Positions 166-57,852 of a DNA stretch of 64,000 nt are shown here, in pieces. Location of the stretch: positions 4,446 through 68,445 of the forward strand of contig DATGQI010000036.1 in NCBI GenBank assembly GCA_035304285.1, read 5' to 3'. The notes below the pieces were generated by a model. The model was not told where the DNA came from. It was given only the letters and a program-made list of their open reading frames with translations, and made no database searches. The position numbers were made by a program, and so were the translations under genes. Positions within the stretch are counted from its first letter, which is position 1, and each line of letters begins with the position of its first letter. This DNA comes from Woeseiaceae bacterium (GTDB lineage: Bacteria > Pseudomonadota > Gammaproteobacteria > Steroidobacterales > Woeseiaceae).

Positions 166-171
166 TCTTCC

Positions 172-1860: not shown

Positions 1861-1880
1861 CCCCGGAAAGGACGACACAG

Positions 1881-2835: not shown

Positions 2836-3346
2836 CCGGGTTGCCCTGGCGGTCGTCAATCTCGACTTCAGGCGCCACCGGGTCGACCGCGTCGAGGTAC
2901 ATCGCGCGGGCGACCCTTAAGGTCCTGGCGCCGGGATTCAGCTCCTCGCCCTTTACCAGGTCCCGGTGTGCCTTCTCGTACTCAGCCGTATTGATATAGA
3001 TCACTGCACGATTGTTGTAGGCACGCCAGCTCTGGTCGTCCCGCTCGATCAGCAGTTCGCAATACTTCAAAGCTTCCTGGTAGTTTTCGAGCATGATGTA
3101 GCCTGCGCAAAGATTCGACAGCGCTGCTTCTTCCTCTCGTGCGCCCTGCGCAACCTTCAAGCCCCGAAGCGTAAGCTCGACACCCTCCTTCGCCCGGCCG
3201 GCCAGCAGCTGTTTCGCGCCATCCTGGAGGTCGGGATTACGCGGGCCGATGACCGTGGTTGGCCCGTCCTGCATTCGGTCAGCATTCTGAGCGAAACCCT
3301 GAGGCCCCACCAAGCTTAAGATGACCATCAAGAATAATCTGCCCAT
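2813..3346 (-). CDS. TPR-repeat secreted protein
   Basis: Start moved to the internal Met (MGRLFLMVILSLVGPQGFAQ signal peptide). TPR-like helices are present (ALSNLCAGYIMLENYQEALKYCE, AYNNRAVIYINTAEYEKAHRDL). Confidence 0.6.
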   Translation of the reverse strand: MGRLFLMVILSLVGPQGFAQNADRMQDGPTTVIGPRNPDLQDGAKQLLAGRAKEGVELTLRGLKVAQGAREEEAALSNLCAGYIMLENYQEALKYCELLIERDDQSWRAYNNRAVIYINTAEYEKAHRDLVKGEELNPGARTLRVARAMYLDAVDPVAPEVEIDDRQGNPDGDDQER

Positions 3347-3410
3347 GATTCGCACCCTCTGTTCCGCCGGCCACAGCTGCCGAAACCCAGAAAGCGTTGG
3401 CCGACCCAGA

Positions 3411-14651: not shown

Positions 14652-14819
14652 GCCTGAAACTCAACGTCTGCTGATGTCGACATTACTGCATGTGAACCGG
14701 TAACAATTACAAACTCGACGCGCCGCAACTGCCGACGCCTGCGGTGCCGGCAATGATGCTTGCAAAAAACCTGCCACGCTAACTCGCACCAATCCTGGCG
14801 CAGTGTAGGGGAGCGCCCT

Positions 14820-15727: not shown

Positions 15728-15812
15728 GTTTGATAAAGGCACACCTTTCGAAAGGAAGGGCCGCAAAGCCACCGGTCTAAGGGAATATCCTATGACAGCG
15801 GGGTTGCCGACA
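15728..15812 (+). promoter_or_regulatory. c-di-GMP-I (GEMM-I) riboswitch aptamer, copy 1
   Basis: AAAGGCACACCUUUCGAAAGGAAGGGCCGCAAAGCCACCGGUCUAAGG...GACAGCGGGGUUGCC matches the GEMM-I core as in Vc2: GGCAAACC..UCGAAAG..GGACGCAAAGCC.CCGG.CUAA...UAGCGGGGUUACC. Includes a GAAA tetraloop hairpin (CCUUUC/GGAAGG). Confidence 0.85.
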
Positions 15813-15979
15813 CGACAGCTACTACGCGACGAGCATTCCGAAGCCCGTTCGCAGGCAACCCGCCCTCATAGATGCAGCGGACCAGACTGAGAGTCTGCCG
15901 CCAATTCCCGCCCGGAAACCGCGCGGTGTCCTTATTCGGACACGGCATTCGACCGTGTCGGTGCGGACGGGAGAGCAGC

Positions 15980-41551: not shown

Positions 41552-42507
41552 GCTGCGCTCCGCATCAGCGGGCCCGTTACCGGCTGCACTGGCGCCACGT
41601 GCATTCGGGATGCAATGAACTCGGGGCGAGGGGTTGCGGGCCCGAAAGGCGCCTCGAGGCGGTTTGATACAGCGTTGTAGACGATGAACGCATTGCTCCG
41701 GGGAAGCGGCGTGATGTTGCTGGCCGAACCGTGCATGGTATTGCAGTCGAAAATGATGACGGTACCTGCGGGGCCGGTGGGCGCAGCGATGCCGCCCTCG
41801 GCTGCCAGCCAGGCCAGCGACTCGTCGTCCGGTACGCCATACTCCTGTTGCTTGAGAGAACTCCTGTAGTGGTTATCCGGAGTCTCGCCAATGCAGGTGA
41901 CATAGTGCCGGTGTGAGCCCGGTAAGAGCATGAGGGGCCCGTTGTGCGGTGTGTTCTCGGTCAGCAACACGGTCATCGACAACGCCCGCATCCGCGGCAT
42001 GCCGTCCTCGACGTGCCATGTCTCGAAGTCGGAGTGCCAGTAGAATTCCTTCCCGCGGAACCCCGGCTTGTAGTTCATGCGTGACTGGTGAATATAGATG
42101 TCGTCGTTCAGCAGGAACCGCGCAACTTCCGCGAGTCGGGCGTCGGCGGCAAGCCGCGCGAACGTCCGGTCCTGTTCGTGTATGCGAAAAACCGAGCGCA
42201 CATGGCCGGAGCCCGGCTCACTGATCAGCGTTTCCGGTTCCAGCGCGCTCTGTCCTGCGCCACGCAATCTCGCAGCCGCGCTGCAAAGGGTCTCGACTTC
42301 ACCGGCGTCAAAAATATCCCGCAGTACCAGGAAACCGTCTTGCTCGAATGACTGCGTATCCTCCTTGGAAAGCGGCGCGTCAGGAGTCCAGCTTCCATGC
42401 ACCACGTCGTCGAGGCGCGGAAGTACCTGCGCCTCCGTCGCTTGCCGGGACGGATATGCGTCTTCCCGCGGTTTCCCTGCAATCCTGTTCGCTGCGACCT
42501 GGCTCAT
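41548..42507 (-). CDS. ectD: ectoine hydroxylase
   Basis: Contains the EctD signature [21 protein letters not shown] overlap with ectC. Confidence 0.9.
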
Positions 42508-42896
42508 ACCGCCTCCGCCTGTAGCGGGTAAGCGCCGCTTTCGTCGTGGACTTCCAGCCCGTTGAGTGGCGGGTTGAAGACGCAGGCCATCGTCATTTCC
42601 GAAGTAGCGCGAAGTATGTGCGGGTCGTGCTTGTCGAGCGCGTACATGACGCCGGGACGTATCGGAAACGTCTCGCCGGTTTCCTGGTTCTCGATCGAAC
42701 CCTCGCCTGCGACACAGTAAACGGACTCCAGGTGATTCCGGTAGTGCATCGGCAGCTCGGCGCCTTCGTAAATGGTTGTGATGTGGAAAGAGAAGCCCAT
42801 CGCGTCTTCCTTCAACAACAGGCGCACGCTGTTCCAGCCCGGTGTCTCGACCAGTCGTCTGCTCTTCTTCGCATCATCAAGATTTCGAACAATCAT
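42504..42896 (-). CDS. ectC: L-ectoine synthase
   Basis: 130 aa cupin. MIVRNLDD...[23 protein letters not shown]... is typical of EctC. Confidence 0.9.
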
Positions 42897-42909
42897 GTGT
42901 ATACCCCTC

Positions 42910-44214
42910 TTACGCCGCTGCCCTGTCGGCCTTGTCGAGCACGGCTCTTACCGAACGCGCCATGATGTCGAGACCGCGTACTAGCTCCTCGTCGGAAATT
43001 GTCAGCGCCGCGAGGCACTTGACGATTTCGTCATCACTGCCGCTCGTTTCGATAACCAGTCCGTCAGCGAATGCTTTCCTGACCACGTGGCCTGCGAGTT
43101 CGCCGGAAGGCATCTCAAGACCGCGCATCATCCCACGACCCTTCACGGCGGTCCGGGCAAGGCCGTTCGCGCGCGCGATATCATCAAGCTTCGTCTTCAG
43201 TAGCTGACCTTTGTCGTATATCGACTGCTCGAAAGCGCTGTCGCGCCAGAAGTGCTCGAGTGCGGCACGCGCCGTAACGAATGCATGGCAATTGCCGCGG
43301 AAGGTGCCGTTGTGTTCGCCCGGTAGCCATTCGTCGAACTGCCTGTCTATCAATACGAGCGCCAGCGGCAGACCGTATCCGGAAATGGATTTGGCCATGG
43401 TGACGATGTCGGGCTTTACCTTCGCCGGTTCAAAGCTGAAGAACGTCCCGGTCCGACCCGTACCGGCCTGGATATCGTCGACGATGAATAGCGCTCCGTG
43501 TTTGCGCGCAATCGCCGCAATCTTCCTGAGCCAATCGTAGTCGGCGACGTTCAGGCCGCCCTCGCCCTGGACTGTTTCCACGAGCACTGCGGCGGGAGCG
43601 TCGACACCACTGGATCCGTCTTCGAGCATCTTGTCCAGGTACGCTGCAGTATCGACCGATGGTCCGAAGTAGCCGTCGAAAGGCATTCGCGTGACGCCGC
43701 TCAAAGCCACGCCCGCACCGTTACGATGGAAGCCGTTGGCAGTAGTCGCTAGCGCCCCGAGGGTGACGCCGTGAAAACCGTTGGTGAATGCAATGACGTT
43801 CTGGCGCCCGGTCACCTTGCGCGCAAGTTTCAGTGCTGCCTCGACGGCGTTCGCGCCGGTCGGACCGGGAAACTGCACGACGTAGTCCAGCTTGCGAGGC
43901 TTAAGGATCGTTTCATGGAGCTCGGCAAGAAATCTTTCCTTGCTCTCGCTGTACATATCGAGGCTGTGTGTAATGCCGTCACTGCTGATGTACTCGATCA
44001 GTGCTTTCTTGAGTTCCGGATGGTTATGCCCGTAGTTGAGCGTCGAGCAACCCATCAGGAAGTCGAGGTATGCGGTGCCATCGCGGGTATAAAGCCACGA
44101 GCCCCTGGCGCGGTGGAAAATCCGGGGAAAGTTTCGTGCGTAGCTTCGAACCTGCGATTCGAGCAGCTCGAAAGTCTCGACGGCGGGTTCGCTGTCCCTT
44201 TTCTGTTCAGACAT
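42910..44214 (-). CDS. ectB: diaminobutyrate--2-oxoglutarate transaminase
   Basis: Start at the internal Met (MSEQKRD...). [12 protein letters not shown] and a class-III aminotransferase body with Lys in [11 protein letters not shown]. Confidence 0.9.
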
Positions 44215-44239
44215 GGTGTTCCTCTGTGGTGAGATGTGA

Positions 44240-44806
44240 TTACGTGGCGCTGCGCGCACTTCGCTTGGAATTCAGCGGGCTAATGGTGATAAGCCGCTCG
44301 CTCGCGTGCCGGCCCTCGAAGTGCCGCTCCTCGTCGAAGCAGGCAGTCTCCTCAAGGGCAGCATTCGCCCGCTCGGCAACCGAGCGGAACAAGGCATGCG
44401 ACGCGTGATTGTCAGGCGTTATCGTCGTCTGCATGCGAACGACGTCACCTAGTTCCTGGCGTTCGAGTAAATCGAACAACATTCTTCGCGCCAATCCCAG
44501 GCCGCGAGCCCGTTCGTGTACCGCTACCTGCCAGATAAAGAGCGTCGACGGGTCGGCGGGACGGCGGTAGCCCGAAACCCAACCGACAGCCTCGCCATCC
44601 ATTTCCGCGAGCACTGACGTTTCGGCGAAATCCCGGCACTGCAGGAGGTTGCAGTACATCGAGTTCTGGTCCAGTGGCGGGCAGGCGGCAACGAGTCGCC
44701 AGATGCGCGAGCCGTCCGTGGAAGCAGGCCTCCTGAGCGATACCTGTCGCGAAGCCGCTTTCTCGCCGATCCGCGGCGCTTTGCTGTCTTCTTTGGGTAC
44801 TTGCAT
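44240..44806 (-). CDS. ectA: L-2,4-diaminobutyrate acetyltransferase
   Basis: 188 aa GNAT. NSMYCNLLQCRDFAETSVLAE and WQVAVHERARGLGLA are typical of EctA. First gene of the ectABCD-ask order. Confidence 0.85.
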   Translation of the reverse strand: MQVPKEDSKAPRIGEKAASRQVSLRRPASTDGSRIWRLVAACPPLDQNSMYCNLLQCRDFAETSVLAEMDGEAVGWVSGYRRPADPSTLFIWQVAVHERARGLGLARRMLFDLLERQELGDVVRMQTTITPDNHASHALFRSVAERANAALEETACFDEERHFEGRHASERLITISPLNSKRSARSAT

Positions 44807-44831
44807 AATTAGTTTGATAGTCTAACTAATT
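44807..44831. promoter_or_regulatory. inverted repeat AATTAGTT-N9-AACTAATT abutting the ectA start codon (candidate EctR/MarR operator)
   Basis: A perfect 8+8 AT-rich palindrome in otherwise GC-rich DNA, directly 5' of the ectA ATG. A divergent MarR gene is adjacent. Confidence 0.35.
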
Positions 44832-45015
44832 CAGGCCCGGATTTAAACCGCGTGGCGGCCTGTCATTCAAAAATCTCCGGGAAGTTGCTTAGTATACCGA
44901 AGTAAATTGAAGCCCGTGCGCGCTCACTGCTGGCGAGCGGCGACGGAATCTGCGACAAAGAGGAGTTTGCGCGGTGGTGTTCTTCTCCCGGGCTGCAGCA
45001 TCGAAGGATTCGCCG

Positions 45016-45501
45016 ATGGAAAATCGTTCCGATAGCGCGCTGATCGCGCTGCGCCGCATCTTGCGAGCGACAGAGTTGAACTCGCGGCTCCTCGCCAGCC
45101 AGACGGGGCTGACGACGTCGCAGTTCATCATCCTGCAGATCGTCGCTCGCGAGAGCAAGGTGCTGCCGAGCGCCGTCGCAAAGTCCGCGGGACTGACGCA
45201 GGCGACGGTCACGTCGCTGGTAGACAAGCTGGAGCGCCACGGTCTCGTGAAGCGCAGGCGTGATACCGAGGACCGGCGGCGCATATGGGTTGAAGCGACC
45301 GCGGCCGGGCGTAAGGCGCTTGCCGATTCACCGGATCTGCTGCAGGACCGTTTCCAGGTCGCATTCCTCAAGCTTGCCGAATGGGAGCAAGCGATGATCA
45401 TCGCGGCGCTGGAGCGGGTATCAGCGATGCTGGACGCCGCTACACTGGATGCTTCGCCCGTCCTCGACATCGGCGAGCTGGATCGCTTGCTGAATAGCTG
45501 A
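45016..45501 (+). CDS. ectR: MarR-family regulator, EctR-like
   Basis: Start at the internal Met (MENRSD...). Winged-helix MarR core (LTTSQFIILQIV...ATVTSLVDKLERHGLVKRRRDTEDRRR). Divergent from ectA, as for EctR of methylotrophs. Confidence 0.7.
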   Translation: MENRSDSALIALRRILRATELNSRLLASQTGLTTSQFIILQIVARESKVLPSAVAKSAGLTQATVTSLVDKLERHGLVKRRRDTEDRRRIWVEATAAGRKALADSPDLLQDRFQVAFLKLAEWEQAMIIAALERVSAMLDAATLDASPVLDIGELDRLLNS

Positions 45502-45553
45502 ACCTGACTGCCGCGGGCGGCTTCCGGAATGCCTTGGATGAGCCCACCACGTC

Positions 45554-46495
45554 TTAGTGGAGAGGTTGACCTTCCTCCGCCGCCCGCGGCCCGCCACTCT
45601 TCAAGACCAGAACATCCGCCCTGACGCGTTGAACGACACGCTCTGCAGCGCTGCCGGAGAACATCCGGCTCAATCGTCCGCCCCGCCGGGCGCCGAGAAC
45701 GATCAGGTCGGCATTCATCGGCTCCGACATTTCCTCCAGCGTTTCGACCAGCTTGCCTTCGTGAATGTGGATGCGCTCCCGCGGCAATCCGTGCGCTGCC
45801 GCCATATCGAAAACGCGGCCCATGCGGCGATCGTAACGACTGGTGCCCATGTCGTCCTCGGGATCGGGCGCCGCGGGTTCGACTGCCTGGGGCAGACCTG
45901 CCTCGCCGAACGTATGCAAGGCGTGCGGCTCCTTGCCGAGCTTTCGTGCGAGCTTCGCGGCATGGTCGAGAATTCGCGCGTCCAGCGAATCGACGGCGCC
46001 ACCGTCAGCACTTGGCCGCTCGATAGCTCCAACGATCTTGTCGCCGCTCTTGTGTTGCGGGTTGACAACCCAGACCGGAGCGGGACACGAGCGGATCATC
46101 GAAAAGTCATGACCGGTCAGGGTCATTTCCTCGAACCGGGAGTGGTTGTTGCGGCGAATCAGTACCAGCGATGGCGATATCCTCTGCACTACTTCGAGTG
46201 CATCTTCCTCCACCGATGACGATGCCCTCACCTCGCCGCTTGCAGACACGCCGGCGGCAGCAAGGTCCTTCAGCAGCTTGTCGAGCGACCTTCGGCAACG
46301 TTCGATGAGCTTCTGCCGCACCCTGCGGACCCGCTCCCGCCGTCCTGGCAGCGCCGGCGGCAGCTCTGCCTCATCGAACATGCAGCAGATGTAGAGTTCC
46401 TCCTGCAATGCCCCGGCCACTTCCCGCGCCCGCCGTACCAGGTTGGGATGCGGAATGGAGCCAAAATCCATGACCAATAATTGACCGCTTTTCAT
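45554..46495 (-). CDS. tandem universal stress protein (UspE-like)
   Basis: Start at the internal Met (MKSGQLLVMDFG...). Two Usp domains; the second ends ...ADLIVLGARRGGRLSRMFSGSAAERVVQRVRADVLVLK. Confidence 0.7.
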   Translation of the reverse strand: MKSGQLLVMDFGSIPHPNLVRRAREVAGALQEELYICCMFDEAELPPALPGRRERVRRVRQKLIERCRRSLDKLLKDLAAAGVSASGEVRASSSVEEDALEVVQRISPSLVLIRRNNHSRFEEMTLTGHDFSMIRSCPAPVWVVNPQHKSGDKIVGAIERPSADGGAVDSLDARILDHAAKLARKLGKEPHALHTFGEAGLPQAVEPAAPDPEDDMGTSRYDRRMGRVFDMAAAHGLPRERIHIHEGKLVETLEEMSEPMNADLIVLGARRGGRLSRMFSGSAAERVVQRVRADVLVLKSGGPRAAEEGQPLH

Positions 46496-46549
46496 AAGCC
46501 TCGCCAGAACTGAACACCGTGGTCGTATAACTACCGGTGCAAGCACGAG

Positions 46550-46565
46550 TGCAAGAAGCGGGCCA
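46550..46565 (-). promoter_or_regulatory. sigma-54 promoter, near-consensus (TGGCCC-N5-TTGCA)
   Basis: The minus strand reads tggcccgcttcttgca. One mismatch, with the GG and GC dinucleotides intact. About 55 nt upstream of the USP start at 46495. Confidence 0.55.
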
Positions 46566-46652
46566 TCGGCGGGGCACGGCAGCGTCAGCTGCGTCATGGC
46601 ATCCGTCGGTGCCGCATCCGGCTGCAGCGACGCACCCGGGACGCTTTTTCCG

Positions 46653-46668
46653 TGGCACAGAATTTGCA
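46653..46668 (+). promoter_or_regulatory. sigma-54 promoter, perfect TGGCAC-N5-TTGCA
   Basis: tggcacagaatttgca, 82 nt upstream of the ATG at 46750. Confidence 0.8.
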
Positions 46669-46749
46669 ACCGCCTCATCCATAAGGAATAAATTGACCTT
46701 CCATCCGGCGAGAACTGATGCCAAAGACGCTTCGCACCCGCTTTTCCCA

Positions 46750-49191
46750 ATGAGTAGCCAACGCGAGGTAGTGATCATTACCGGCATTGCCGGGGGGATC
46801 GGGTCCAGGGTCGCGTCAGCGCTGGAAGACGAATTCTGCGTAGTCGGAATGGACCTCGACTGCGAAGAGGACGAACGGAATTTCCCGGTGGACCTGAGTT
46901 CCGACGAGTCCGTCGACTCTGCCCTCCGGAAGATCCGTGAGCGTTTCGGCAAGCACCTTGCCTCTGTTGTTCATCTTGCCGCCTACTTCGATTTCTCGGG
47001 TGAGGACAACCCCCTGTACCAGGAGGTCAACGTTGATGGCACGCGCCGCCTGCTCGACGGGCTGCAGGGTTTCGAGGTCGAACAGTTGCTCTACTCGAGC
47101 ACGATGCTGGTCCACGAACCGACTGAGCCCGGTATTCCTGTCACCGAAGATTCGCCTCTCGGGCCGGCGTGGAAATACCCGCAGTCGAAACTAGAGACTG
47201 AAAGGATTATTGAGCGTCACCACGGCGGCATCCCGTACACGATGCTTCGCATCGCGGGCGTCTACGACGAGAACTGCAAGGTGCCGACGCTTGCGCACCA
47301 GATGCAACGGATCTACGAGCGGCGCTTGCAGGGCCACCTGTTTGCGGGCGACGTCACGACCGGACAGTCGTTCGTACACCGGGACGACGTGGTGGACGCC
47401 ATTTGCCTTGCCGTCCGCCGTCGTTCTCGCCTTGAGGAGACTCCCGCTCTCCTGATCGGTGAGCAAGGCGTGCTTAGCTACCAGGAATTGCAGAGCGAAC
47501 TTGCGCGGCTCATCCATGGCGAGAACTGGCTGACGAAATCGATTCCGAAACCGGTCGCCCGGGTGGGCGCATGGCTCCAGGAAAAGGGCGAGAAAGTTAT
47601 CCCGGATGCCATAGACCAGGGCAACGAGCCGTTCATCAAGCCCTTTATGATCTCCATGGCGGACGACCACTACGAACTCGATACCAGCCTTGCCCGCGAC
47701 AATCTCGGCTGGGCGCCGCGTCACTCCCTGCGCGACGAACTCCCGCTGATGGTCGACATGCTGAAGCGCGACCCGGAGGAATGGTATCGACGCAACAAGC
47801 TGGCACTCCCCGTATGGCTCATGAGCGATGAGATCGACGACGCCGAAATCGAGAACCTCCGCCAACAACACACGCAACTTAAACGCCGCGAGCACCGCGA
47901 CAATCTCTGGGCACACTTCCTGACGATTGCGCTCGGCGGATGGCTCATCACGGCCCCCCCAACGCTCGGCTACCAGTCGGCCGCTCTCGCCGCCAGCGAC
48001 ATCGCCTGCGGCGTCATGGTGATGCTGTTCGGCGCCTTATCCCTGTCGTGGCGGATGGCGTGGGCGCGGCTGGTAAACGGCGCTATCGGCGTCTATCTCC
48101 TGTTCGCTCCCTTGTTGTTCTGGGCACCCACGGCGGCCGCCTACCTGAATGCCACGCTGGTCGGGGCGCTCATCATTGCGTTCGCCATGGTGACGAGGCC
48201 ACCGATCGGCGTCAGCATGATTGCCCGACTCACAGGACCGGACGTGCCGCCGGGCTGGGAGTACTCCCCATCATCCTGGACGCAGCGCCTGCCGATCATC
48301 GCGCTGGCGTTCGTCGGGCTCTACTTCTCGCGATACCTGACGGCCTACCAGCTCGGGCACATCGGTGAGGCCTGGGACCCGTTCTTCGGCGACGGCACGG
48401 AGCGCATCATCACCTCGGATCTGTCGCGGGCATGGCCGGTGCCGGATGCCGGAGTCGGGGCCGTGACTTATATGCTGGAGATCCTCACCGGGCTTATCGG
48501 AAGCCGGCGTCGCTGGCGGACGATGCCATGGATGGTGCTGCTATTCGGGTTCATGATCGTACCGCTCGGTGTCGTCAGTATCTTTTTCATAATCATCCAG
48601 CCCATCGCCATCGGAACCTGGTGCACGCTCTGCCTTCTCGGCGCAGCGGCCATGGTGGTGCAGATTCCGTACTCGCTGGATGAACTCGTCGCTACCTGCC
48701 AGTTCCTCGGCCAGCGGCGCAGGCAAGGACAACCGCTGTGGCCGGTGCTTTTGCACGGGGACACCGCGGCTGGCGGCAAGGAAGAGCCTCAGGACAGTTT
48801 CGAGCAGTCCCCGCGGGAGATCAACCGCGAGATGTGGGGAGGAGGCGTGAATCTTCCCTGGACTCTGGCAGCCAGCATTGCCATCGGGATATGGCTCATG
48901 GGCACCCGGTTGGTCTTTGGCACCGAGGGCGCTATGGCCAACAGCGACCACCTCATCGGCGCACTGGTAGTAACGGTGTCCGTGGCGGCACTGGCCGAAA
49001 TTGGACGCGCCGCACGCTATCTCAACGTGTTGTTCGGCGCTGCGTTGATAGTCGTTCCGTGGATACTCGATGGCGGCAGTTTGCTGGCCGATATCGCGAG
49101 CGTAATAGCCGGCTTGTTGTTGATCCTTTTTGCCCTGCCGCGTGGCAGTGTACGCCACAGCTACGGAAGCTGGGATCGCTTCATATTCTGA
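46750..49191 (+). CDS. fusion protein: NAD(P)-dependent epimerase/SDR domain plus large polytopic membrane domain with VKOR-like CxxC
   Basis: Start at the internal Met (MSSQREVVIITGIAGGIGSRV, Rossmann TGxxGxxG). YPQSK catalytic motif. After about 400 aa there are many TM helices, including a ...GTWCTLCLLGA motif resembling the VKOR active-site helix. Confidence 0.65.
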   Translation: MSSQREVVIITGIAGGIGSRVASALEDEFCVVGMDLDCEEDERNFPVDLSSDESVDSALRKIRERFGKHLASVVHLAAYFDFSGEDNPLYQEVNVDGTRRLLDGLQGFEVEQLLYSSTMLVHEPTEPGIPVTEDSPLGPAWKYPQSKLETERIIERHHGGIPYTMLRIAGVYDENCKVPTLAHQMQRIYERRLQGHLFAGDVTTGQSFVHRDDVVDAICLAVRRRSRLEETPALLIGEQGVLSYQELQSELARLIHGENWLTKSIPKPVARVGAWLQEKGEKVIPDAIDQGNEPFIKPFMISMADDHYELDTSLARDNLGWAPRHSLRDELPLMVDMLKRDPEEWYRRNKLALPVWLMSDEIDDAEIENLRQQHTQLKRREHRDNLWAHFLTIALGGWLITAPPTLGYQSAALAASDIACGVMVMLFGALSLSWRMAWARLVNGAIGVYLLFAPLLFWAPTAAAYLNATLVGALIIAFAMVTRPPIGVSMIARLTGPDVPPGWEYSPSSWTQRLPIIALAFVGLYFSRYLTAYQLGHIGEAWDPFFGDGTERIITSDLSRAWPVPDAGVGAVTYMLEILTGLIGSRRRWRTMPWMVLLFGFMIVPLGVVSIFFIIIQPIAIGTWCTLCLLGAAAMVVQIPYSLDELVATCQFLGQRRRQGQPLWPVLLHGDTAAGGKEEPQDSFEQSPREINREMWGGGVNLPWTLAASIAIGIWLMGTRLVFGTEGAMANSDHLIGALVVTVSVAALAEIGRAARYLNVLFGAALIVVPWILDGGSLLADIASVIAGLLLILFALPRGSVRHSYGSWDRFIF

Positions 49192-49215
49192 CCAGATTAC
49201 GTGCGACGCGGTGCG

Positions 49216-49635
49216 CTAGTCCTCTTCGGCTCGCAGCATTTCATCGGCAATCTGCTCGGTGATCGGGTGGAACATGCCTAGCCCGCAGGAAGCTCCGGGA
49301 GCGAAACCGAAACCCCAGTCCTGGAGCACCGTTACCATATCGACGCTGCACAGGCTGCCCACCGACGAGCGGTACATCAAGGTATCGTTCCTTCGCAGTC
49401 CGGGACATCGGTGAGGAAGGTCGTTCCGGTAGACGGTATTGCCGCGCATGCGAAAGATGAGGGTATCGGCATCAACGATAACGATGTCATCTATATCGTT
49501 GATGCGGACGCAGTGCCTTGCTTCGAGATCGCGCTCCTCCGTCTCAGCCGCGTCCTCCTGCGCGAGGCTCCCGGTACCGCTGGCTGCGCCTGCCAGGATC
49601 AGGATGCCGAACAGTTTTACATAGTTCACTGACAA
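49216..49635 (-). CDS. small secreted Cys-containing hypothetical protein
   Basis: 139 aa. Signal peptide MSVNYVKLFGILILAGAASG. Four Cys in the mature part. No confident family. Confidence 0.5.
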   Translation of the reverse strand: MSVNYVKLFGILILAGAASGTGSLAQEDAAETEERDLEARHCVRINDIDDIVIVDADTLIFRMRGNTVYRNDLPHRCPGLRRNDTLMYRSSVGSLCSVDMVTVLQDWGFGFAPGASCGLGMFHPITEQIADEMLRAEED

Positions 49636-49779
49636 ATTCTCCTGTGCTTGCCGACTTGCGGTTCTCGCGGTGTAACAGCAGTTTTTTCAACGTTTATGTA
49701 ATTGTTACCAGGTACCGCTTTCCGACTGACAAGGGCTCGCGGAATTCCGGTTCGCCAGAACCTCAAGCAACGAAGAAGG

Positions 49780-50073
49780 TCATTCGAGATCGGCGTCCGG
49801 CACGCCTCCCTCCAGCTTGTCGCGGTCAATGCTTTCATCCACCGGCACCTGCACCCAGTTGCCCTGGTCATTCTTTTCGAACCTGCGCTGCACCTCCAGC
49901 ATTGCCGCTTCGTGAGCGGTTTCGTCCAACTCGGAGTCCGCTCTCTCGCCGCTCATCGCAGTGGTCTCCCATACCCTGCGATATACCGCAAGGTACATGC
50001 GCTGCGCGTTCTCCGGCAGCTTTCTCCGCAGGGACTGCGGAAGGTCGTCAAGTTCCTGATAAGGCTCGTGCAT
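49780..50073 (-). CDS. chaB: ChaB-family protein
   Basis: 97 aa. DLPQSLRRKLPENAQRMYLAVYRRVWE...ETAHEAAMLEV aligns with E. coli ChaB as I recall it (DLPESVKHVLPSHAQDIYKEAFNSAW...ETAHKVAWAAV). Confidence 0.8.
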   Translation of the reverse strand: MHEPYQELDDLPQSLRRKLPENAQRMYLAVYRRVWETTAMSGERADSELDETAHEAAMLEVQRRFEKNDQGNWVQVPVDESIDRDKLEGGVPDADLE

Positions 50074-50098
50074 GGCAATCCTTCAATTGCCATGAAGT

Positions 50099-50114
50099 TG
50101 CAAGTTGTGTGCCA
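50099..50114 (-). promoter_or_regulatory. sigma-54 promoter, perfect TGGCAC-N5-TTGCA
   Basis: The minus strand reads tggcacacaacttgca. 25 nt separate it from the chaB ATG at 50073, and AAGGA lies between them. Confidence 0.8.
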
Positions 50115-50152
50115 CGGCCTTCTCCAGGTGTTCCCGCCGATTCAACGAGCAC

Positions 50153-50168
50153 TGGCACGACGCTTGCA
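50153..50168 (+). promoter_or_regulatory. sigma-54 promoter, perfect TGGCAC-N5-TTGCA
   Basis: tggcacgacgcttgca, 68 nt upstream of the ATG at 50237. Confidence 0.8.
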
Positions 50169-50236
50169 GCGGAGATTGCGGCACTGAACGCACTATCAGG
50201 GTCCACAGCACTCCTCTATCCACTCCATACACCGGG

Positions 50237-50755
50237 ATGAAAAATCTCATGAATGAAGAAGACCTGAAGCACTTTACAGATATCCTGAAGACCTTCGATA
50301 CCGCGATGCTCGTGACGCAGCGTGGGCGAGAGCTGCGATCCCGACCAATGGAAATCGTGGACCGCACCGATGACGGTCGCATCTGGTTCCTGACAAGCAT
50401 TGACAGCGCAAAACTCGAGGAGCTTACGGAGAATCCGGATGTAAACGTCGCGATGCAGGACGACCCCAGGTTCCTTTCCGTCTCCGGCGCTGTCCGCGCG
50501 ACGCGTGACCGGGAGAAAGTGGACGAAGTATGGAAGGAGTCGTTCGATGCCTGGTTTCCTGAAGGACGTGACGATCCGACGGTCGTGCTCCTCGAGGTGG
50601 TCCCAACCTATGTCGAGTACTGGGACCGGTCCGGCGCCGGCGGATTGATGTCAATGTTCACTTCCGCGGGGGAGGCCGCTGAGGACAGTGACGCGCATGG
50701 CAAGGTGGACTTCCCCAAGTCCGAGAGCGAGCTGCCGCGCTCGGCACGTCACTAG
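50237..50755 (+). CDS. pyridoxamine 5'-phosphate oxidase-family protein (general stress protein 26-like)
   Basis: Start at the internal Met (MKNLMNEEDLKHF...). FDTAMLVT...RSRPM...DGRIWFLT...V.V...D...ylsvsG pattern is typical of the GSP26/PNPOx split-barrel. Confidence 0.7.
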   Translation: MKNLMNEEDLKHFTDILKTFDTAMLVTQRGRELRSRPMEIVDRTDDGRIWFLTSIDSAKLEELTENPDVNVAMQDDPRFLSVSGAVRATRDREKVDEVWKESFDAWFPEGRDDPTVVLLEVVPTYVEYWDRSGAGGLMSMFTSAGEAAEDSDAHGKVDFPKSESELPRSARH

Positions 50756-50784
50756 CAGCGCGAGAAACTGTCCGACGCTGGCGC

Positions 50785-51756
50785 CTATCGCTCTTCTGCC
50801 GGGAAGTGATCCGGCTTGACCACTACGACGTCGCAATGGACATCATCCAGGATTGCTTCAGCCGTACTGCCGATCAGTAGTCTTTCGACACGTCCACGCG
50901 ATACCGCGCCCGCGACAACAACATCGATTTCCAGCTGCATCACGAGTTCTTCCAGCGCCTCGCTGGTATTGCCCGACACCAGGTGCACATGGTCGCTGGA
51001 TATGCCCGCCGATTCGGCAAGTCTCCGCAGTTCGGTCCTGCGATGCTTTTCGAGTTCTCCGGCGAGTTCACTGCTGAGACGCATGACAGGCACCGCACCC
51101 TGATTAGTTGCGGAGGCAACAGGGGCAACCATGGCTCCTGGCCGGTACGCATGGAAAAGGTGTAGCGATCCGCCGAACAGGTTTACCAGGTCGCCAGCCA
51201 CCTCGACCAGCTTCCGGTCGAGCCCCGCCTTTTTCTCCTCGGGATGGGAAGGATCGACGGCCGCAATGATGCGAAGGCCGCTGCTCAGCGGATCCAGTAC
51301 TTTTTTACAAAGCCACAGGAGCTGCGGAGCCCGCCGGATCAACTCCCAGTCCGTTGCGCCGAAAAACAGCCGGTCAATCCTCCCGTGCCTTCTTGCCGAG
51401 CGGACGATGAGGTCGGCGCCGACCTCCCTCGCCTTCTCGAGAATCGCCTCATAGCGCGGAGAATGCCACTCGACATGGCAGGTCACCTGTCCACCCTCCT
51501 CGCGAAGCGGGGCTGCCTGCGACTCCAGCCAGTTCTGCAACTCCTGCATGTATTCAATGCGCGCTCTGGCAACGCTCTCGTTGTCGAAGAGCACGCCATC
51601 GGCCAACGATCCGGCGGAATCGCACACGAACAGGTCGACCGAAGCTCCGCTTGCTATAGCAAGCTGCCTGGCCCGGTCTATAGCGAGCAGGCCCGCGCCT
51701 CTCTCGATCCGGCGGTCGGGATTCACATCTGCGAGAATGCTCTTGATTTCAGCCAT
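50785..51756 (-). CDS. tandem universal stress protein (UspE-like)
   Basis: 323 aa with two Usp domains (ADLIVRSARRHGRIDRLFFGATDWELIR; IDVVVAGAVSRGRVERLLIGSTAEAILDDVHCDVVVVK). Starts 27 nt downstream of the activator gene. Confidence 0.75.
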   Translation of the reverse strand: MAEIKSILADVNPDRRIERGAGLLAIDRARQLAIASGASVDLFVCDSAGSLADGVLFDNESVARARIEYMQELQNWLESQAAPLREEGGQVTCHVEWHSPRYEAILEKAREVGADLIVRSARRHGRIDRLFFGATDWELIRRAPQLLWLCKKVLDPLSSGLRIIAAVDPSHPEEKKAGLDRKLVEVAGDLVNLFGGSLHLFHAYRPGAMVAPVASATNQGAVPVMRLSSELAGELEKHRRTELRRLAESAGISSDHVHLVSGNTSEALEELVMQLEIDVVVAGAVSRGRVERLLIGSTAEAILDDVHCDVVVVKPDHFPAEER

Positions 51757-51783
51757 GCGCAGCTCCTGGTAAAGACCGCCGCG

Positions 51784-53115
51784 TCATGCACTCTTGTACT
51801 GTTTCAGCCTGTTATAAAGAGTCTTCAAGCTAACGCCCAGAACCTCGGCTGTTTTCTTCTTGTCGCCGTCGTAATGTTCCAGCGTCGACAGAATCGTCCG
51901 TCGCTCGATCTCCGCGAGCGGCGTACCCACGTAAAGGCGGATAAAGTCGCCGTCGCCGGGGTTCGAGAAGGAAACCCTTCCTGGAAGGTCTTCCATCTTG
52001 ATCTCGCTGCCCGCCAGGAGATGGCTGTGCAGCACGGCGGTCTTGAGTTCCAGCACGTTGCCCGGCCAGTCATAGGCCTGCAGCGCCTTTCGCGCGCGGC
52101 TGCTGAAGGTCTTGTTCTGGCCTGTTGTGGCATTCTGTTCTTTCAGGAAATGATCTGCCAGCAGCAGAACGTCATCGTCGCGTTCGCGCAGTGCGGGTAC
52201 GCGTATAGGAAACTGCGCGAGACGATAGTAAAGGTCTTCACGCAGGCGGCCGCGCCCCACGGCCTCTTCCGGATCGATATTAGTCGCGGTGATGATGCGC
52301 GCGTCGACTGCGATGTCCTGCTCGCCTCCGACAGGCCTGATCTCGTTGGACTCCAACACCCTGAGCAGCTTCGCCTGCAGCCCGGCGTTCATTTCGGTGA
52401 TCTCATCGAGGAACAGCGTGCCCCCCGAGGCGCGCTGGAAGTAACCGCGGTGATCGCGCGTCGCTCCCGTGAAACTGCCCTTCTTGTGCCCGAACAATTC
52501 GCTTTCGAGAAGTCCCGGAGACAGGGCGCTGCAGTTCAGGGAAACGAAGTCATTGCCCGCACGGTCGCTCAGTTGGTGAATAGTGCGCGCCACCAGTTCT
52601 TTCCCGGAGCCACTTTCACCTGCGAGAAAGATGCTGGCGTCGCCCGGCGCGCATTTACGCAGCAACCGGTACAAGCGCTGCATGGCCTTGGATTCGCCAA
52701 CCAGCACATCGCCACGCGGCGAGGGTGTGCTGGCCGCCGGTGCGGTGGAAGACAGCTCCGTCGAAAGATCCCGCAGATTGCGCGCAAGCCGGTCCTTGTT
52801 GACCGGCTTGCGAAAGAAATCGGAAGCACCGATGCGTATCGCACGTGGCGTTATCCTTGGATTTGGCTGGTCGCTCATCAGGTAGATTTCCGTTACCGGC
52901 GTAAGGTTTATCGATTCGAGCAAACCCAGGGTGTCATCACCGGCAAGCTGCTCATTCAGGATCGCGATCTCGGGCGTATGGCGGAGCAGAGCCTCCCTTG
53001 CCTGCGGCAGGCTCTCGGCGGTCTCAGGCAAATACCCGCACTCCCGGAACACTTGCGACAGCGTTTGTGAATTTTCGACATCGTTGTCGACTATGAGTGC
53101 ATGCGGCACGAACAT
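51784..53115 (-). CDS. sigma-54-dependent transcriptional activator (NtrC family) with atypical receiver domain
   Basis: 443 aa. Receiver-like N-terminus. AAA+ sigma-54 interaction domain (GESGSGKE Walker A, GSFTGA loop, DWPGNVLEL). C-terminal Fis-type HTH (TAEVLGVSLKTLYNRLK). Confidence 0.9.
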   Translation of the reverse strand: MFVPHALIVDNDVENSQTLSQVFRECGYLPETAESLPQAREALLRHTPEIAILNEQLAGDDTLGLLESINLTPVTEIYLMSDQPNPRITPRAIRIGASDFFRKPVNKDRLARNLRDLSTELSSTAPAASTPSPRGDVLVGESKAMQRLYRLLRKCAPGDASIFLAGESGSGKELVARTIHQLSDRAGNDFVSLNCSALSPGLLESELFGHKKGSFTGATRDHRGYFQRASGGTLFLDEITEMNAGLQAKLLRVLESNEIRPVGGEQDIAVDARIITATNIDPEEAVGRGRLREDLYYRLAQFPIRVPALRERDDDVLLLADHFLKEQNATTGQNKTFSSRARKALQAYDWPGNVLELKTAVLHSHLLAGSEIKMEDLPGRVSFSNPGDGDFIRLYVGTPLAEIERRTILSTLEHYDGDKKKTAEVLGVSLKTLYNRLKQYKSA

Positions 53116-53191
53116 CGCTCCTTCAGTTACTCATGCTCTGCATCGGGCCGCCCCTTGTAGCGACGCGGCGCAACATTCTCAGAGCCTGCTG

Positions 53192-53815
53192 TCATTGCCT
53201 GAACTCGAGCCTGAACAGTTCGCGCAGCCTGGCGAGTTCCCCTATGGGATCTTCATGGGCATCCACGCGGAGGTCGACGTTTACGCTAACGATGTCGCCT
53301 TTCGCAGGTACTACGCTCAAGGCTGCAGCCTTGCGGCCACGCCGGTCTCCTCCCTTGAGGTCTCCGGCCTTCAAAGCTTCGAGGAGACGATCGTGAAGCA
53401 GCTCTTCGGTAGACTGTTCGAAGACTTCGACCATACTTTCCACAACTTCCTCGGTGGCCAGGTAATTGCCGGCGGCCACGCAACCGGACCCAAAAATATG
53501 ACGACTCGTCTCAGCGCAGTCCTTGCCTGTCCATCCGCTTTTTCTCCCTTTGGCGTCGATGGCTATCAGCTGCCGGGAATCTGCATCCGGATCCTTTTCC
53601 AGCGCCTGGGTCAGCGCCTCGTGCGGAGGGCTTCCTGCGTCCATCTTGTCCAGCACCCGCTGGCCCAGCGTCAGGTGGGCGTAGTGTTGAGTGTTGATTA
53701 CGCCGACCCCGATGCGGGAGTAGCTGACGGTTCCGCCGACGGCCAGCGAGTAGCTGGCTACCGCCGATCCGCAGGCACCGCTTGCGCTATCGAAAGCAAC
53801 GATGGAGAACGTCAT
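53192..53815 (-). CDS. DUF1028-family (Ntn-hydrolase fold) protein
   Basis: Start at the internal Met, giving MTFSIVAFDSASGACG..., the characteristic DUF1028 N-terminus with Thr2 as the putative nucleophile. Confidence 0.75.
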   Translation of the reverse strand: MTFSIVAFDSASGACGSAVASYSLAVGGTVSYSRIGVGVINTQHYAHLTLGQRVLDKMDAGSPPHEALTQALEKDPDADSRQLIAIDAKGRKSGWTGKDCAETSRHIFGSGCVAAGNYLATEEVVESMVEVFEQSTEELLHDRLLEALKAGDLKGGDRRGRKAAALSVVPAKGDIVSVNVDLRVDAHEDPIGELARLRELFRLEFRQ

Positions 53816-53957
53816 CGCGCGTTCGCCACCCAAAGCGGCTTGTGACCTTGCTACTTCTGCCACGGGCGAAAGTGCTCAACCCGTCCTCTCCACCCTCATG
53901 TGTTGTTCCTCGATGCCTTTCACGCACTATGAGCGCGTAAACCTGCTGTGCATCGCG

Positions 53958-53973
53958 ATGCAACAAGTGTGCC
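53958..53973 (-). promoter_or_regulatory. sigma-54 promoter, perfect TGGCAC-N5-TTGCA
   Basis: The minus strand reads tggcacacttgttgca, about 140 nt upstream of the DUF1028 start. Confidence 0.8.
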
Positions 53974-54234
53974 AGAGGGTTCCATACGGATACTGCGGCG
54001 CTTCTTCCCACAAGCGTTGCCTTGAATAAAGTGACTGCCGGAGCCAGCGCTCCATTCCACGCAGCTCCGGCATCGCCGGAATGAACGGTTGCAGCAGCCG
54101 GTCCCGCGGGCCATCGTTCACTTGAGCCCTCCGCAGCTGTCACCACGGTTGCAACAAGGAAAAAATTACAAAAAGCCGCAGGATTAGCGGGGAGAAACGA
54201 GTCAGCGGATGAGCGTCAACGGTGAGCCGGTTCG

Positions 54235-56457
54235 TCAGGAGGTATTGCGTTTCCGCTGGCTTTTCCGCTTCTGCTTCTGGTGCGACTCGATCGGCACAGG
54301 CATCGTCTTGCGGATCGGCGTAGCAGTCGGCCGTCCGATGTGGAAGCCCTGCGCAAAATCGATACCCAGACGCCCGAGCAGTGTGAAGGCCGCGCCTGGC
54401 TGTACGTATTCGGCGATGGTTTTCATGCCGGCGGCCCTGCCGATTTCACCGATCATCTTCACCATTTTCTGGTCCACCGGGTTGCGTACCAGGTCCCTGA
54501 TGAAGCTGCCGTCTATCTTGATGTAGTCCACCGGCAGTTTTTGCAGGTAACTGAAGGAACTGTATCCGGTACCGAAGTCGTCTAGGGAGACCTGGCAGCC
54601 GATCTCACGCAACCCTGCTATCTGCTTCTCAACGTGGTTCAGGTGCCGCATCGCGAGACTCTCGGTAATCTCGAAGGTCACACAGTCCGCAGGAACGCCC
54701 TGTCGCGCCAGCTGCGACATGACGAATGCGGTGAGGTTCTCCGCTTCGAACGCGTTGGCGGAAAGATTCAGCGCGAAGCGAAGGTCCGGCGCGTCCTGCC
54801 GGTATCTTGCAAGCTCGGCTATCGCCGTTTCGATGAGCCATGTGTCTATTTCCGCCATCAGCCCGAAACGGACCGCAGCCGGGAGGAATGCGTCAGGCGA
54901 AACCAGGTCACCGTTGTCGGCCTTCATCCGTAACAGTACCTCGTGGTGCGTTGTTTCACCCGTGGCTATGCATACGATGGGCTGGTAGCGCAGCATGAGG
55001 AGGTTATTGTCGATGGCCTCTCTCAGCTTGCTGATCCAGTTGACGTCAGCCGCCATCTGCTCAACGTCCCGTTCGGACATGCTGTGGAAGGCAAGCCGGT
55101 TCCGTCCCGAGGCTTTCGCCTCCCGACAGGCAATATCCGCCTGTGATATCAGATCGTCATGATCGAAGCGGTCGGAATCGATCATCGTGATACCGATGCT
55201 GCAATGCACATGGAAGATGTTGTCGTCCTCGACGTGCGCAACCTTGCGCAGGTCTTCCAGGATCGACTCCGCTAGCGCCTGTGCCGCCGGTTTCGAAACG
55301 CCGGTAGCAAGCACCGTAAACTCATCTCCCCCGAACCTGCCGACCGTTCCGATGTCGCCGACGCAGCTCTGTAGCTGGTCCGCGACCTTCCTGATCAGCC
55401 GGTCGCCCGCGGGATGACCACAGGTGTCATTGACGTACTTGAACTGGTCGAGGTCGATGAACAGCAGCGCGGCCCTGGTGCTCTCGCGCGCGACATTCCG
55501 TACTTCCCTGCGCAACTCTTCAACGAACCGGCGCCGGTTGAAGAGACCCGTCAGAACGTCATGGTTCGCCAGCCGGGAAAGCTTTTCGTTGCGTTCGCCA
55601 AGCGCCGAGGCTGTCGATGCAAGGGCCTCCACAATATCGGATATTTCCCGGTGCTTGGCGGGCTTGAACTCTACCGACAGGTTGCCTTTCGCCAGTTCGG
55701 CGATTGGCCTTTGCAGATCGGCAATGGGCGTCAGCGCGCTCAGCAGGCGCCGACGTCCGATCAGGCCGGACACGATCAACAGCAGCAGCAGCACACTGGT
55801 TGCGACCTTGATATTTGTCAAAAGCCTTGCGTGGAAGAAACCAAAGTCCAACTCGAGGCGGACGAAGCCGGCGAGACTCCTGGTACTCGGCACGTCACCC
55901 GCGGTCGGATCGAATCCGAAAAGGCCTTCGCCGCCGATAGATTCAGTCCAGATCGGGGCGAGAATCTCGAACGTGTGGGCGCTGAAGACGTTGCTGTTCA
56001 CGAGGTAAGGTTCGTTCGCACCGACCAGGTCGGATAAGCGAGCGAGCAAGGCATAAGAGACCGGCTCAGCCGGTACGCTGTGGTAAAGGCCGCTATCGAT
56101 GGAGTAGAACGGGCTGCCGTCTTCGTAGTAATAGGTGACCCTGTCAATCTCCGGATAACGTCCCACGAAGCTCTCCAGGCGCGGAATCACCTCGGCGTCG
56201 CGCTGCAGGTAAAGGGGCGCCCCGAGTTCGTTCAACTCGCCGGTCCACTGCAGCGCCCAGCGGCCGTAGTTATCCTGCAGCACCCACTGCCCGCCCCAGT
56301 AGAGGCCGCCGATTGCGAGGGCGCCGACTACCGCTGTGATCATGAGCTGAAGGGACAGGATCTCGTTGATCAGCAGGCGCTTGCCGCGGCGGTTTGACTT
56401 CCGTCGCGCCGCCAGCCTTGCGCGGTTTTGCTCCGGAAGTGGGGCGGTCGCAGTCAT
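54235..56457 (-). CDS. membrane-bound GGDEF-EAL protein (diguanylate cyclase/phosphodiesterase) with periplasmic and HAMP-like regions
   Basis: 740 aa with two TM helices. GGDEF motif RFGGDEFTVLA. EAL domain (EVLLRM, DDFGTGYSSFSYL). ATGA overlap with the upstream lipoprotein gene. Confidence 0.9.
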   Translation of the reverse strand: MTATAPLPEQNRARLAARRKSNRRGKRLLINEILSLQLMITAVVGALAIGGLYWGGQWVLQDNYGRWALQWTGELNELGAPLYLQRDAEVIPRLESFVGRYPEIDRVTYYYEDGSPFYSIDSGLYHSVPAEPVSYALLARLSDLVGANEPYLVNSNVFSAHTFEILAPIWTESIGGEGLFGFDPTAGDVPSTRSLAGFVRLELDFGFFHARLLTNIKVATSVLLLLLIVSGLIGRRRLLSALTPIADLQRPIAELAKGNLSVEFKPAKHREISDIVEALASTASALGERNEKLSRLANHDVLTGLFNRRRFVEELRREVRNVARESTRAALLFIDLDQFKYVNDTCGHPAGDRLIRKVADQLQSCVGDIGTVGRFGGDEFTVLATGVSKPAAQALAESILEDLRKVAHVEDDNIFHVHCSIGITMIDSDRFDHDDLISQADIACREAKASGRNRLAFHSMSERDVEQMAADVNWISKLREAIDNNLLMLRYQPIVCIATGETTHHEVLLRMKADNGDLVSPDAFLPAAVRFGLMAEIDTWLIETAIAELARYRQDAPDLRFALNLSANAFEAENLTAFVMSQLARQGVPADCVTFEITESLAMRHLNHVEKQIAGLREIGCQVSLDDFGTGYSSFSYLQKLPVDYIKIDGSFIRDLVRNPVDQKMVKMIGEIGRAAGMKTIAEYVQPGAAFTLLGRLGIDFAQGFHIGRPTATPIRKTMPVPIESHQKQKRKSQRKRNTS

Positions 56458-57767: not shown

Positions 57768-57852
57768 CGCTTGATAAAGGCACACCTTCCGAAAGGAAGC
57801 GTCGCAAAGCCACCGGTCTACGGTTTTTAACTACGACAGCGGGGTTACCAGC
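57768..57852 (+). promoter_or_regulatory. c-di-GMP-I (GEMM-I) riboswitch aptamer, copy 2
   Basis: AAAGGCACACCUUCCGAAAGGAAGCGUCGCAAAGCCACCGGUCUACGG...GACAGCGGGGUUACC. 47 of the first 50 core nt are identical to copy 1. The 3' strand ends 3 nt before the ATG at 57853. Confidence 0.85.

Follow-up and report, generated by a model that had tools for sequence, protein, structure and literature searches.

A predicted sigma-54 regulon module around one NtrC-family activator in a Woeseiaceae chromosome

Introduction

Sigma-54 regulons are usually tied to nitrogen, flagella, transport or envelope stress. Here we describe an 8.4-kb gene cluster within a 64-kb stretch of DNA (contig DATGQI010000036.1; hereafter the window, W in the alignments) from a bacterium of the Woeseiaceae, a globally abundant marine-sediment clade. 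The cluster carries five predicted sigma-54 promoters around a single gene for an NtrC-family activator, a bacterial enhancer-binding protein (bEBP) of the AAA+ class, and its genes include two for universal stress proteins (USPs). Literature searches for sigma-54/RpoN together with USP, bEBP, Woeseia or Woeseiaceae yielded no description of such a system. A comparative paper of 2025 reported that USP (COG0589) is enriched in predicted sigma-54 regulons of Planctomycetia only (PMC12316311).

The closest described activators are those of the NtrC, NtrC1, DctD and ZraR type, which consist of a receiver domain (REC), an AAA+ domain and a helix-turn-helix (HTH). The activator of the cluster has the same REC-AAA+-HTH order with a Sigma54_activat core, a GAFTGA-type loop (GSFTGA here) and a Fis-type HTH. 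The predicted promoter layout is similar as well, with candidate upstream dyads, often in tandem, accompanying a -24/-12 promoter as in NtrC-type regulons. In contrast to these systems, the phospho-acceptor Asp is replaced here, no cognate kinase gene adjoins the activator gene, and the putative targets are of the stress type rather than nitrogen, C4-dicarboxylate or zinc functions.

Two further sigma-54 activators invite comparison. The PspF/psp system is likewise a sigma-54 stress response with compact divergent promoters beside the activator gene and with control that is not exerted by phosphorylation. However, PspF lacks an N-terminal regulatory domain and is restrained by PspA, whereas the activator studied here has a receiver domain; moreover, no PspA, PspB or PspC match was found among the cluster proteins, which sets the cluster apart from phage-shock systems. 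FleQ of Pseudomonas also carries a receiver-like N-terminal domain that works without phosphorylation and answers to cyclic di-GMP (c-di-GMP) and FleN, and a GGDEF-EAL gene and c-di-GMP riboswitches adjoin our cluster. In contrast to FleQ, the putative targets are not flagellar, there is no FleN, and the similarity is confined to the AAA+ core; the c-di-GMP-binding LFRS motif of FleQ was not recognizable by eye in the activator.

With respect to gene content, the cluster and its relatives are reminiscent of the regulons of RpoS in Gammaproteobacteria, PhyR-NepR-EcfG in Alphaproteobacteria, SigB/GSP26 in Bacillus and DosR in Mycobacterium. USPs, GSP26-like proteins, Fe-superoxide dismutase (Fe-SOD), PRC-barrel proteins, entericidin and ferritin/Dps-like proteins are typical members of general-stress regulons, and it is in these, including a GSP26/PNPOx-like protein, that the likeness lies. 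Those systems depend on a sigma-70-family stress sigma factor or a DosR-type response regulator, whereas sigma-54 and an ATPase activator would act here. The DosR dormancy regulon is governed by the LuxR-type DosR/DevR together with the DosS/T kinases; only its USP content is shared, and the AAA+ bEBP of the cluster does not belong to that system.

Sigma-54-type promoters cluster around an activator gene

The motif TGGCAC-N5-TTGCA occurs four times without mismatch in the window, and all four copies lie within 7.3 kb. The number expected is 0.04, and in 100 dinucleotide shuffles the maximum was one, none reaching four. When up to one mismatch was allowed, seven motifs were found against 0.78 expected, and when the whole window was scanned with a weighted consensus, the cluster motifs were among the top six scores, interspersed with a motif upstream of tamA.

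The five motifs of the cluster are all intergenic, each faces a start codon 25-143 nt away, and their GG and GC dinucleotides are exactly 10 bp apart, as in promoters of the sigma-54 (-24/-12) class. The predicted promoter of the first USP gene, USP1 (46550-46565, minus strand; TGGCCCGCTTCTTGCA), has one mismatch and ends 54 nt from the start codon. Exact matches precede the gene for a membrane fusion protein, SDR-SPW-VKOR (46653-46668, plus strand; TGGCACAGAATTTGCA; 81 nt), the chaB gene (50099-50114, minus strand; TGGCACACAACTTGCA; 25 nt) and the gene for a PNPOx-like protein (50153-50168, plus strand; TGGCACGACGCTTGCA; 68 nt). The fifth motif, also exact, is the predicted autoregulatory promoter of the DUF1028-activator-USP2 operon (53959-53974, minus strand; TGGCACACTTGTTGCA), located 143 nt from ATG 53815. 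This ATG was taken as the DUF1028 start because the Thr of MTFSIVA then becomes N-terminal, as an Ntn-hydrolase-like fold expects. The chaB and PNPOx-like promoters are arranged back-to-back with 38 bp between their -24 elements, and the predicted chaB leader of ~15 nt contains an AAGGA ribosome-binding site.

These promoters had been proposed in a sequence-only reading of the window, which put the chance expectation of the exact matches at ~0.03 and regarded their clustering as non-random; our shuffles lead to the same view. Its placement of all copies in intergenic regions, pointing into a gene 25-140 nt away, agrees with our measurements, and the one-mismatch copy at 46550-46565 was recovered by the motif scan. 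Three of its exact sites have the coordinates given above, but the last site was placed one base off, at 53958-53973.

An additional one-mismatch motif at 54138-54153 (plus strand) begins with TGTCAC; it is probably not a promoter because its GG is broken and it faces the 3′ end of the GGDEF-EAL gene in the antisense direction. Scanning 45400-54400 for the sigma-70 consensus revealed no promoter-like site, against 2.2 expected.

The promoters are conserved at the same gene junctions in related loci

We compared the window with 11 related loci whose activators are 56-93% identical to that of the window. Ten of them were obtained by contig look-ups after a protein search, in which the activator relatives were graded from 100% identity (a protein of a Woeseiaceae metagenome-assembled genome) down to 55%. 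Scans of genome and metagenome contigs for the activator recovered almost only paralogs of 33-47% identity because the peptide patterns matched the conserved AAA+ core; L088 was the only useful locus from these scans, and tblastn detected other cluster genes in none of the 80 genome loci of the contig scan.

The full gene order with all five promoters is present in L170 (activator identity 93%) and L082 (73%). A subset of the genes is found in L168 (85%), L088 (84%), L169 (84%), L081 (83%) and L084 (71%). L083 (62%), L086 (62%), L085 (60%) and L087 (56%; Woeseiaceae) carry different stress genes beside the activator, including those for Fe-SOD, PRC-barrel, USPs of ~430 aa, a ferritin-like protein and NYN/pirin. 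L168 has entericidin and a stand-alone receiver in addition.

In total, ~34 motif matches (at least 10 of 11 positions) were tallied by hand in the 11 loci, and ~32 of them are correctly oriented towards a called gene that starts 16-180 nt downstream. The exceptions are L085 5264-5279, downstream of which no gene is called, and L088 1318-1333, located 392 nt ahead of the activator open reading frame (ORF). At the same threshold, 2 Mb of unrelated bEBP loci contain 0.22 motifs per 10 kb. In orthologous loci, the promoters occupy the corresponding gene junctions with unchanged orientation. Mean column identity is as low as 37-39% in three intergenic alignments (A2-A4), and nearly all invariant columns fall in the -24/-12 elements. 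Comparison with related genomes, which had been suggested as a check on the sequence-only reading, thus supports its central claim of genuine, correctly oriented sigma-54 promoters around one NtrC-family activator.

The promoter of the activator operon, TGGCAC[G/A]CTTGTTGCA, is invariant, spacer included, in the window and the six loci of alignment A2 (L170, L081, L088, L169, L168 and L082). In L083, L084, L085 and L087 the activator operon is likewise preceded by a sigma-54 motif, though with another spacer, and its first gene varies among DUF1028, SOD, a small ORF and the activator. The near-invariance of the promoter ahead of this operon implies that positive autoregulation of the activator, as predicted from the promoter, is conserved.

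The other promoters are kept as well. USP1 orthologs have a sigma-54 promoter of their own in L170, L082, L081 and L169, which reads TGGC[C/G]C[G/A]NTTCTTGCA including a conserved TTC at the end of the spacer. The one-mismatch element is thus conserved as TGGC[C/G]C..TTCTTGCA, and on account of this orthologous conservation we argue that the USP1 promoter is functional despite its mismatch. The SDR-SPW-VKOR fusion is retained with its promoter in L170 (9691-9706), L088 (7613-7628) and L082 (16496-16511; 10 of 11 positions). The chaB promoter is kept in L170, L081 and L082 and the PNPOx-like promoter in L170, L081, L082 and L084, and the two are always back-to-back, 5-46 bp apart.

Alignment A2 also contains a block, CATCG-N5-8-ACAGCAGGTTT, which is conserved in W, L170, L088 and L168. 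In the window it occupies ~53925-53958 (minus strand), in the predicted initial transcribed region just downstream of the autoregulatory promoter, and it could be a leader element or the site of a second regulator.

The activator has a degenerate receiver domain

The activator gene (51784-53115, minus strand) encodes 443 aa as called here, or 441 aa from the start called in databases, with Pfam matches to Response_reg, Sigma54_activat (E=5e-65), AAA_lid and HTH_8. A Walker A sequence (GESGSGKE), a GSFTGA L1 loop and the Fis-type HTH identify it as an AAA+ sigma-54 activator. Its closest solved relatives in PDB alignments are ZraR, NtrC4 and NtrC1.

In the receiver domain, Asn54 is aligned to the phospho-acceptor Asp of NtrC1 and NtrC4, so that the hallmark residue of a response regulator is missing, a feature that the sequence-only reading did not mention. 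Among 120 relatives, the residue at this position is N (73 relatives), D (18), S (17), A (9), E (2) or K (1), and the receiver's conserved Lys also varies. No HisKA/HATPase gene was found in the window ORFs scanned with Pfam, which covered the cluster, both flanks and ~20 others (all but about a dozen of the long ORFs), and no histidine kinase is encoded beside the activator in the related loci. At a distance of 8-10 kb from the activator, L085 has a His_kinase/HATPase_c gene with a LytTR regulator and L168 has a HisKA fragment next to a second bEBP gene. Based on the replaced Asp, the variable Lys and the lack of an adjoining kinase, the N-terminal domain is assigned as a pseudo-receiver, and with Asn54 and no kinase nearby the input to the activator is probably not phosphorylation.

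The activator scored below every NCBIfam equivalog cut-off tested, namely NtrC, ZraR, AtoC, GlrR, PrsR, PspF, NorR, RtcR, FlbD and LuxO; PrsR was the best at 325 bits against a cut-off of 502.6, followed by NtrC (307/558.6), ZraR (287/760) and PspF (254/443). An identity as NtrC, ZraR, AtoC, PrsR or PspF is ruled out by these scores. Together with the outcome of the literature search, they uphold the earlier impression that this is not a described system.

A candidate activator-binding dyad lies upstream of the activator operon

A second conserved block of alignment A2, TTTGTAAT[A/T]TTTTC, lies upstream of the autoregulatory promoter. It can be generalized as a 15-bp dyad, TTGYAA-N3-TTKCAA, in which each hexamer is close to the palindrome TTGCAA, and we regard this dyad as a candidate site for the activator. 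The copy in the window lies at 54157-54171 (minus strand; TTGTAATTTTTTCCT), ~185 bp upstream of the promoter. A strict form, TGYAA-N4-TGCA, has eight matches in the window and its related loci (~190 kb together), and seven of these are directly upstream of predicted promoters. With a position weight matrix (PWM) from which the tested locus and its close relatives were held out, 17 of the 24 matches scoring at least 13 bits in 276 kb were located within 260 bp upstream of a sigma-54 motif.

The dyad precedes the activator operon in W, L170, L081, L088, L168, L169, L082, L083, L084 and L087, and tandem pairs 20-21 bp apart occur in L081, L169, L084, L087, L083 and L086. It is also found upstream of USP promoters in L081 and L169 and in the divergent SDR-VKOR/USP1 region of L082, which would tie the USP and SDR-VKOR units to one regulator.

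Between the dyad and the autoregulatory promoter lies a tentative element resembling the consensus for integration host factor (IHF) (54024-54035; GAATAAAGTGAC), a resemblance to consensus only, and a second such copy is at 46686-46697 (GAATAAATTGAC). The former falls in a W-specific stretch of ~50 bp (A2 columns 269-322) at which L170 is gapped. The 12-mers shared among the three promoter regions of the window are confined to the promoters themselves and the IHF-like GAATAAA[G/T]TGAC.

A weak dyad-like pair, CAGCAGTTTTTTCAA and ATGTAATTGTTACCA (8.8 and 9.9 bits, 20 bp apart, 49676-49710), is located in an AT-rich stretch between chaB and the downstream DUF6491-like gene (49660-49710, plus strand). 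This stretch could serve the activator from a distance, act as a sigma-70 promoter of the DUF6491-like gene or owe its resemblance to chance, and we make no claim for it.

A model for the cluster and alternative explanations

The reading we favor, at a probability of roughly 0.65, is a chromosomal sigma-54 regulon module of five promoters and one self-activating NtrC-family AAA+ activator. As such, the locus is a real, uncharacterized sigma-54/bEBP regulon that would operate as other group-I bEBP regulons do, and the mechanism, a bEBP acting at -24/-12 promoters, is itself textbook. In this model, the sigma-54 RNA polymerase holoenzyme would form closed complexes at the five -24/-12 promoters of USP1, SDR-SPW-VKOR, chaB (probably with the secreted DUF6491-like protein), the GSP26/PNPOx-like gene and the DUF1028-activator-USP2 operon. 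The activator would bind TTGYAA-N3-TTKCAA dyads 50-190 bp upstream, possibly with bending by IHF, and open the closed complexes by ATP hydrolysis. With a promoter and dyad of this kind ahead of its own operon, the activator would be among its own targets and generate positive feedback. From this arrangement we infer that the local activator drives all five promoters of the window. The input would be something other than Asp phosphorylation, such as a response of the pseudo-receiver to a ligand or partner, or an effect of ppGpp/DksA on sigma-54 promoters; global stimulation of sigma-54 promoters by ppGpp/DksA is known in other Gammaproteobacteria.

The gene content here and in the relatives, along with the conserved adjacency to ectR-ectABCD, suggests a function in general, oxidative or osmotic stress. 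The sequence-only reading had likened the genes to a dormancy or general-stress regulon. The general-stress part is strengthened by the Fe-SOD, PRC-barrel, long USPs, ferritin-like protein and entericidin of the relatives, but dormancy remains an analogy only.

Several observations weigh against this model. The main gap is the lack of strong dyads at the other promoters of the window: by PWM scan only 54157-54171 is strong, leaving four of the five promoters without one, the USP1/SDR-VKOR region contains only a degenerate copy, and neither the PWM nor the search for shared 12-mers detected a dyad at the chaB/PNPOx-like pair. The PWM was derived after the fact, and the dyad at 54157 coincides in part with the T-rich tail of what may be the terminator of the upstream GGDEF-EAL gene. 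No rpoN gene is located within the 64-kb window, and the stress role rests on annotation names. Finally, the L1 loop reads GSFRGA in 23 of the 120 relatives, including P0020 from L081, and GSFNGA or GSFQGA in a few. The Thr of GAFTGA is normally essential for contact with sigma-54, and thus the family may behave non-canonically; L081 retains all its promoters despite its GSFRGA loop.

In an alternative, the sigma-54 promoters are real but served by several bEBPs, the local activator running its own operon only and others elsewhere in the genome acting on the rest. That a strong dyad marks just the autoregulatory promoter in the window, that L168 has a second bEBP gene within 10 kb and that bEBPs are able to cross-activate sigma-54 promoters from solution would all fit. 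However, relatives show the same type of dyad at USP promoters (L081 and L169) and in the SDR-VKOR/USP1 region (L082), and the stress genes with their promoters accompany the activator in loci of 71-93% identity (L170, L088, L081, L169, L082 and L084). L168 (85%) is an exception in that its activator is beside ectR with none of those stress genes, and the loci of 56-62% identity have a different gene set, with only USPs in common with the window. Taken together, we consider a division of labor among several bEBPs unlikely.

It is far less probable that the repeated 16-mer is the operator of another DNA-binding protein or a repeat element resembling the sigma-54 consensus. This explanation draws on the fact that rpoN was not directly observed, but what is conserved is exactly GG-N10-GC with its TGGCAC and TTGCA flanks while the spacers differ between genes, ~32 of 34 sites in relatives point towards the gene that follows, an intact sigma-54 activator gene adjoins every time, and we noticed neither flanking repeats nor repeat-element features. 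That sequences resembling the consensus have clustered by chance in a GC-rich genome has next to no weight given the shuffle counts above and the conservation of the sites in diverged intergenic DNA, and nothing speaks for it except the usual warning that a match to a consensus does not prove function; on the shuffle counts and the intergenic alignments, we rejected both the chance and the repeat-element explanations.

We hold the following extension of the model to be speculative. The pseudo-receiver bEBP with its positive feedback might serve as a Woeseiaceae master switch for a general-stress or persistence state via sigma-54, which we think doubtful on present evidence. It is similarly tentative that such a switch would have taken over part of the role of RpoS or EcfG, with modular genes each furnished with its own -24/-12 promoter. 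In this extension, the degenerate receiver would perceive a non-phosphoryl signal, examples being c-di-GMP from the conserved GGDEF-EAL module next door, a cue from redox state or flavin, and contact with a partner protein.

A conserved self-activating sigma-54 module with stress-like targets, adjoining ectoine genes in an abundant sediment lineage, would provide a concrete regulon, a promoter set and a candidate operator for studying how Woeseiaceae cope with fluctuating conditions. It would also add a bEBP subfamily whose receiver has lost phosphorylation.

Genes of the cluster

Pfam supports the gene identities of the sequence-only reading throughout: tandem USPs, an SDR-VKOR fusion, chaB, a secreted protein, a PNPOx/GSP26-like protein, DUF1028 and the activator. 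USP1 (45554-46495, minus strand) is a tandem universal stress protein of 313 aa with two Usp stretches (E=4e-27); it is UspE-like but falls under the NCBIfam cut-off. The divergent gene (46750-49191, plus strand) encodes a membrane fusion of 813 aa, in which an NAD-dependent epimerase/SDR domain is followed by an SPW repeat, VKOR and another SPW repeat (Pfam Epimerase, SPW and VKOR). This fusion is unusual, and its VKOR domain has a CTLC motif; the epimerase-SPW-VKOR architecture is the same in L082 and L170.

The ChaB-family protein (49780-50073, minus strand; 97 aa) matches Pfam ChaB with E=1.7e-13. Downstream of it, a small secreted protein (49216-49635, minus strand) has a weak match to DUF6491 at 26.1 bits, just below the cut-off. 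There is no -24/-12 motif in 49636-49779 ahead of this DUF6491-like gene, which trails the ChaB gene also in L081, L082 and L170 and is probably co-transcribed with chaB. In L084, where ChaB is absent, the DUF6491-like gene has its own sigma-54 promoter. The flavin-binding PNPOx-like protein (50237-50755, plus strand; 172 aa) belongs to Pyrid_ox_like/GSP26-like proteins (PF16242, E=1e-36), and its relatives in the PDB carry the names general stress protein or GSP26.

The activator operon begins with the DUF1028 gene (53192-53815, minus strand; E=4e-64), which encodes an Ntn-hydrolase-like protein whose sole PDB relative is 2IMH, a hypothetical protein. It ends with USP2 (50785-51756, minus strand), a tandem universal stress protein of 323 aa with two Pfam Usp stretches. 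The gap between the activator and USP2 genes is 27 nt, and the USP2 position is likewise filled in L170, L082 and L088.

Flanking genes and further sigma-54-like sites

On the left, a complete ectoine/hydroxyectoine cluster (40049-45501, by Pfam) directly adjoins the stress cluster. It comprises a MarR-type ectR, GNAT (ectA), an aminotransferase (ectB), (ectC), an ectD of the PhyH type, a dedicated aspartokinase and an SSF transporter; the stretch of the window ahead of ectA yielded no sigma-54 site. The activator-ectR adjacency is kept down to 62% activator identity (L083, L168, L084, L082 and L170). On the right lies the co-directional GGDEF-EAL gene. GC content is flat over the cluster and its surroundings, which makes this a chromosomal locus rather than a compositionally foreign island; an acquired genomic island is ruled out on this ground. 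The locus is a variable chromosomal stretch between conserved flanks.

No RNA element of Rfam was detected inside the stress cluster. Elsewhere in the window, a c-di-GMP-I riboswitch at 15728-15811 (plus strand; 82.5 bits) precedes the gene for an FAD_binding_4 protein (15872-17347), and a second one at 57769-57852 (plus strand; 72.1 bits) precedes an ORF of ~490 aa (end 59280) that lacks a Pfam match. The latter ORF lies near the ABC_sub_bind-like/GGDEF-EAL pair flanking the cluster, and this neighborhood is the same in L081, L082, L084 and L169.

Three more sigma-54 motifs are present in L168 within 1-3530, ~7 kb from the activator. They are predicted to drive an operon of a small ORF, PRC-barrel and Fe-SOD, the stand-alone receiver and entericidin. 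The second bEBP gene of this locus is <10 kb from the activator.

The remaining one-mismatch motif of the window, a sigma-54-like site at 14761-14776 (minus strand; TGGCAGGTTTTTTGCA), closely precedes tamA (Omp85/POTRA, 12741-14660), and tamB comes after tamA. No dyad motif was found near this site. The motif is kept in L081 (392-407, minus strand; TGGCATATGACTTGCA), which hints that the TAM outer-membrane assembly genes may be sigma-54-dependent in the Woeseiaceae lineage.

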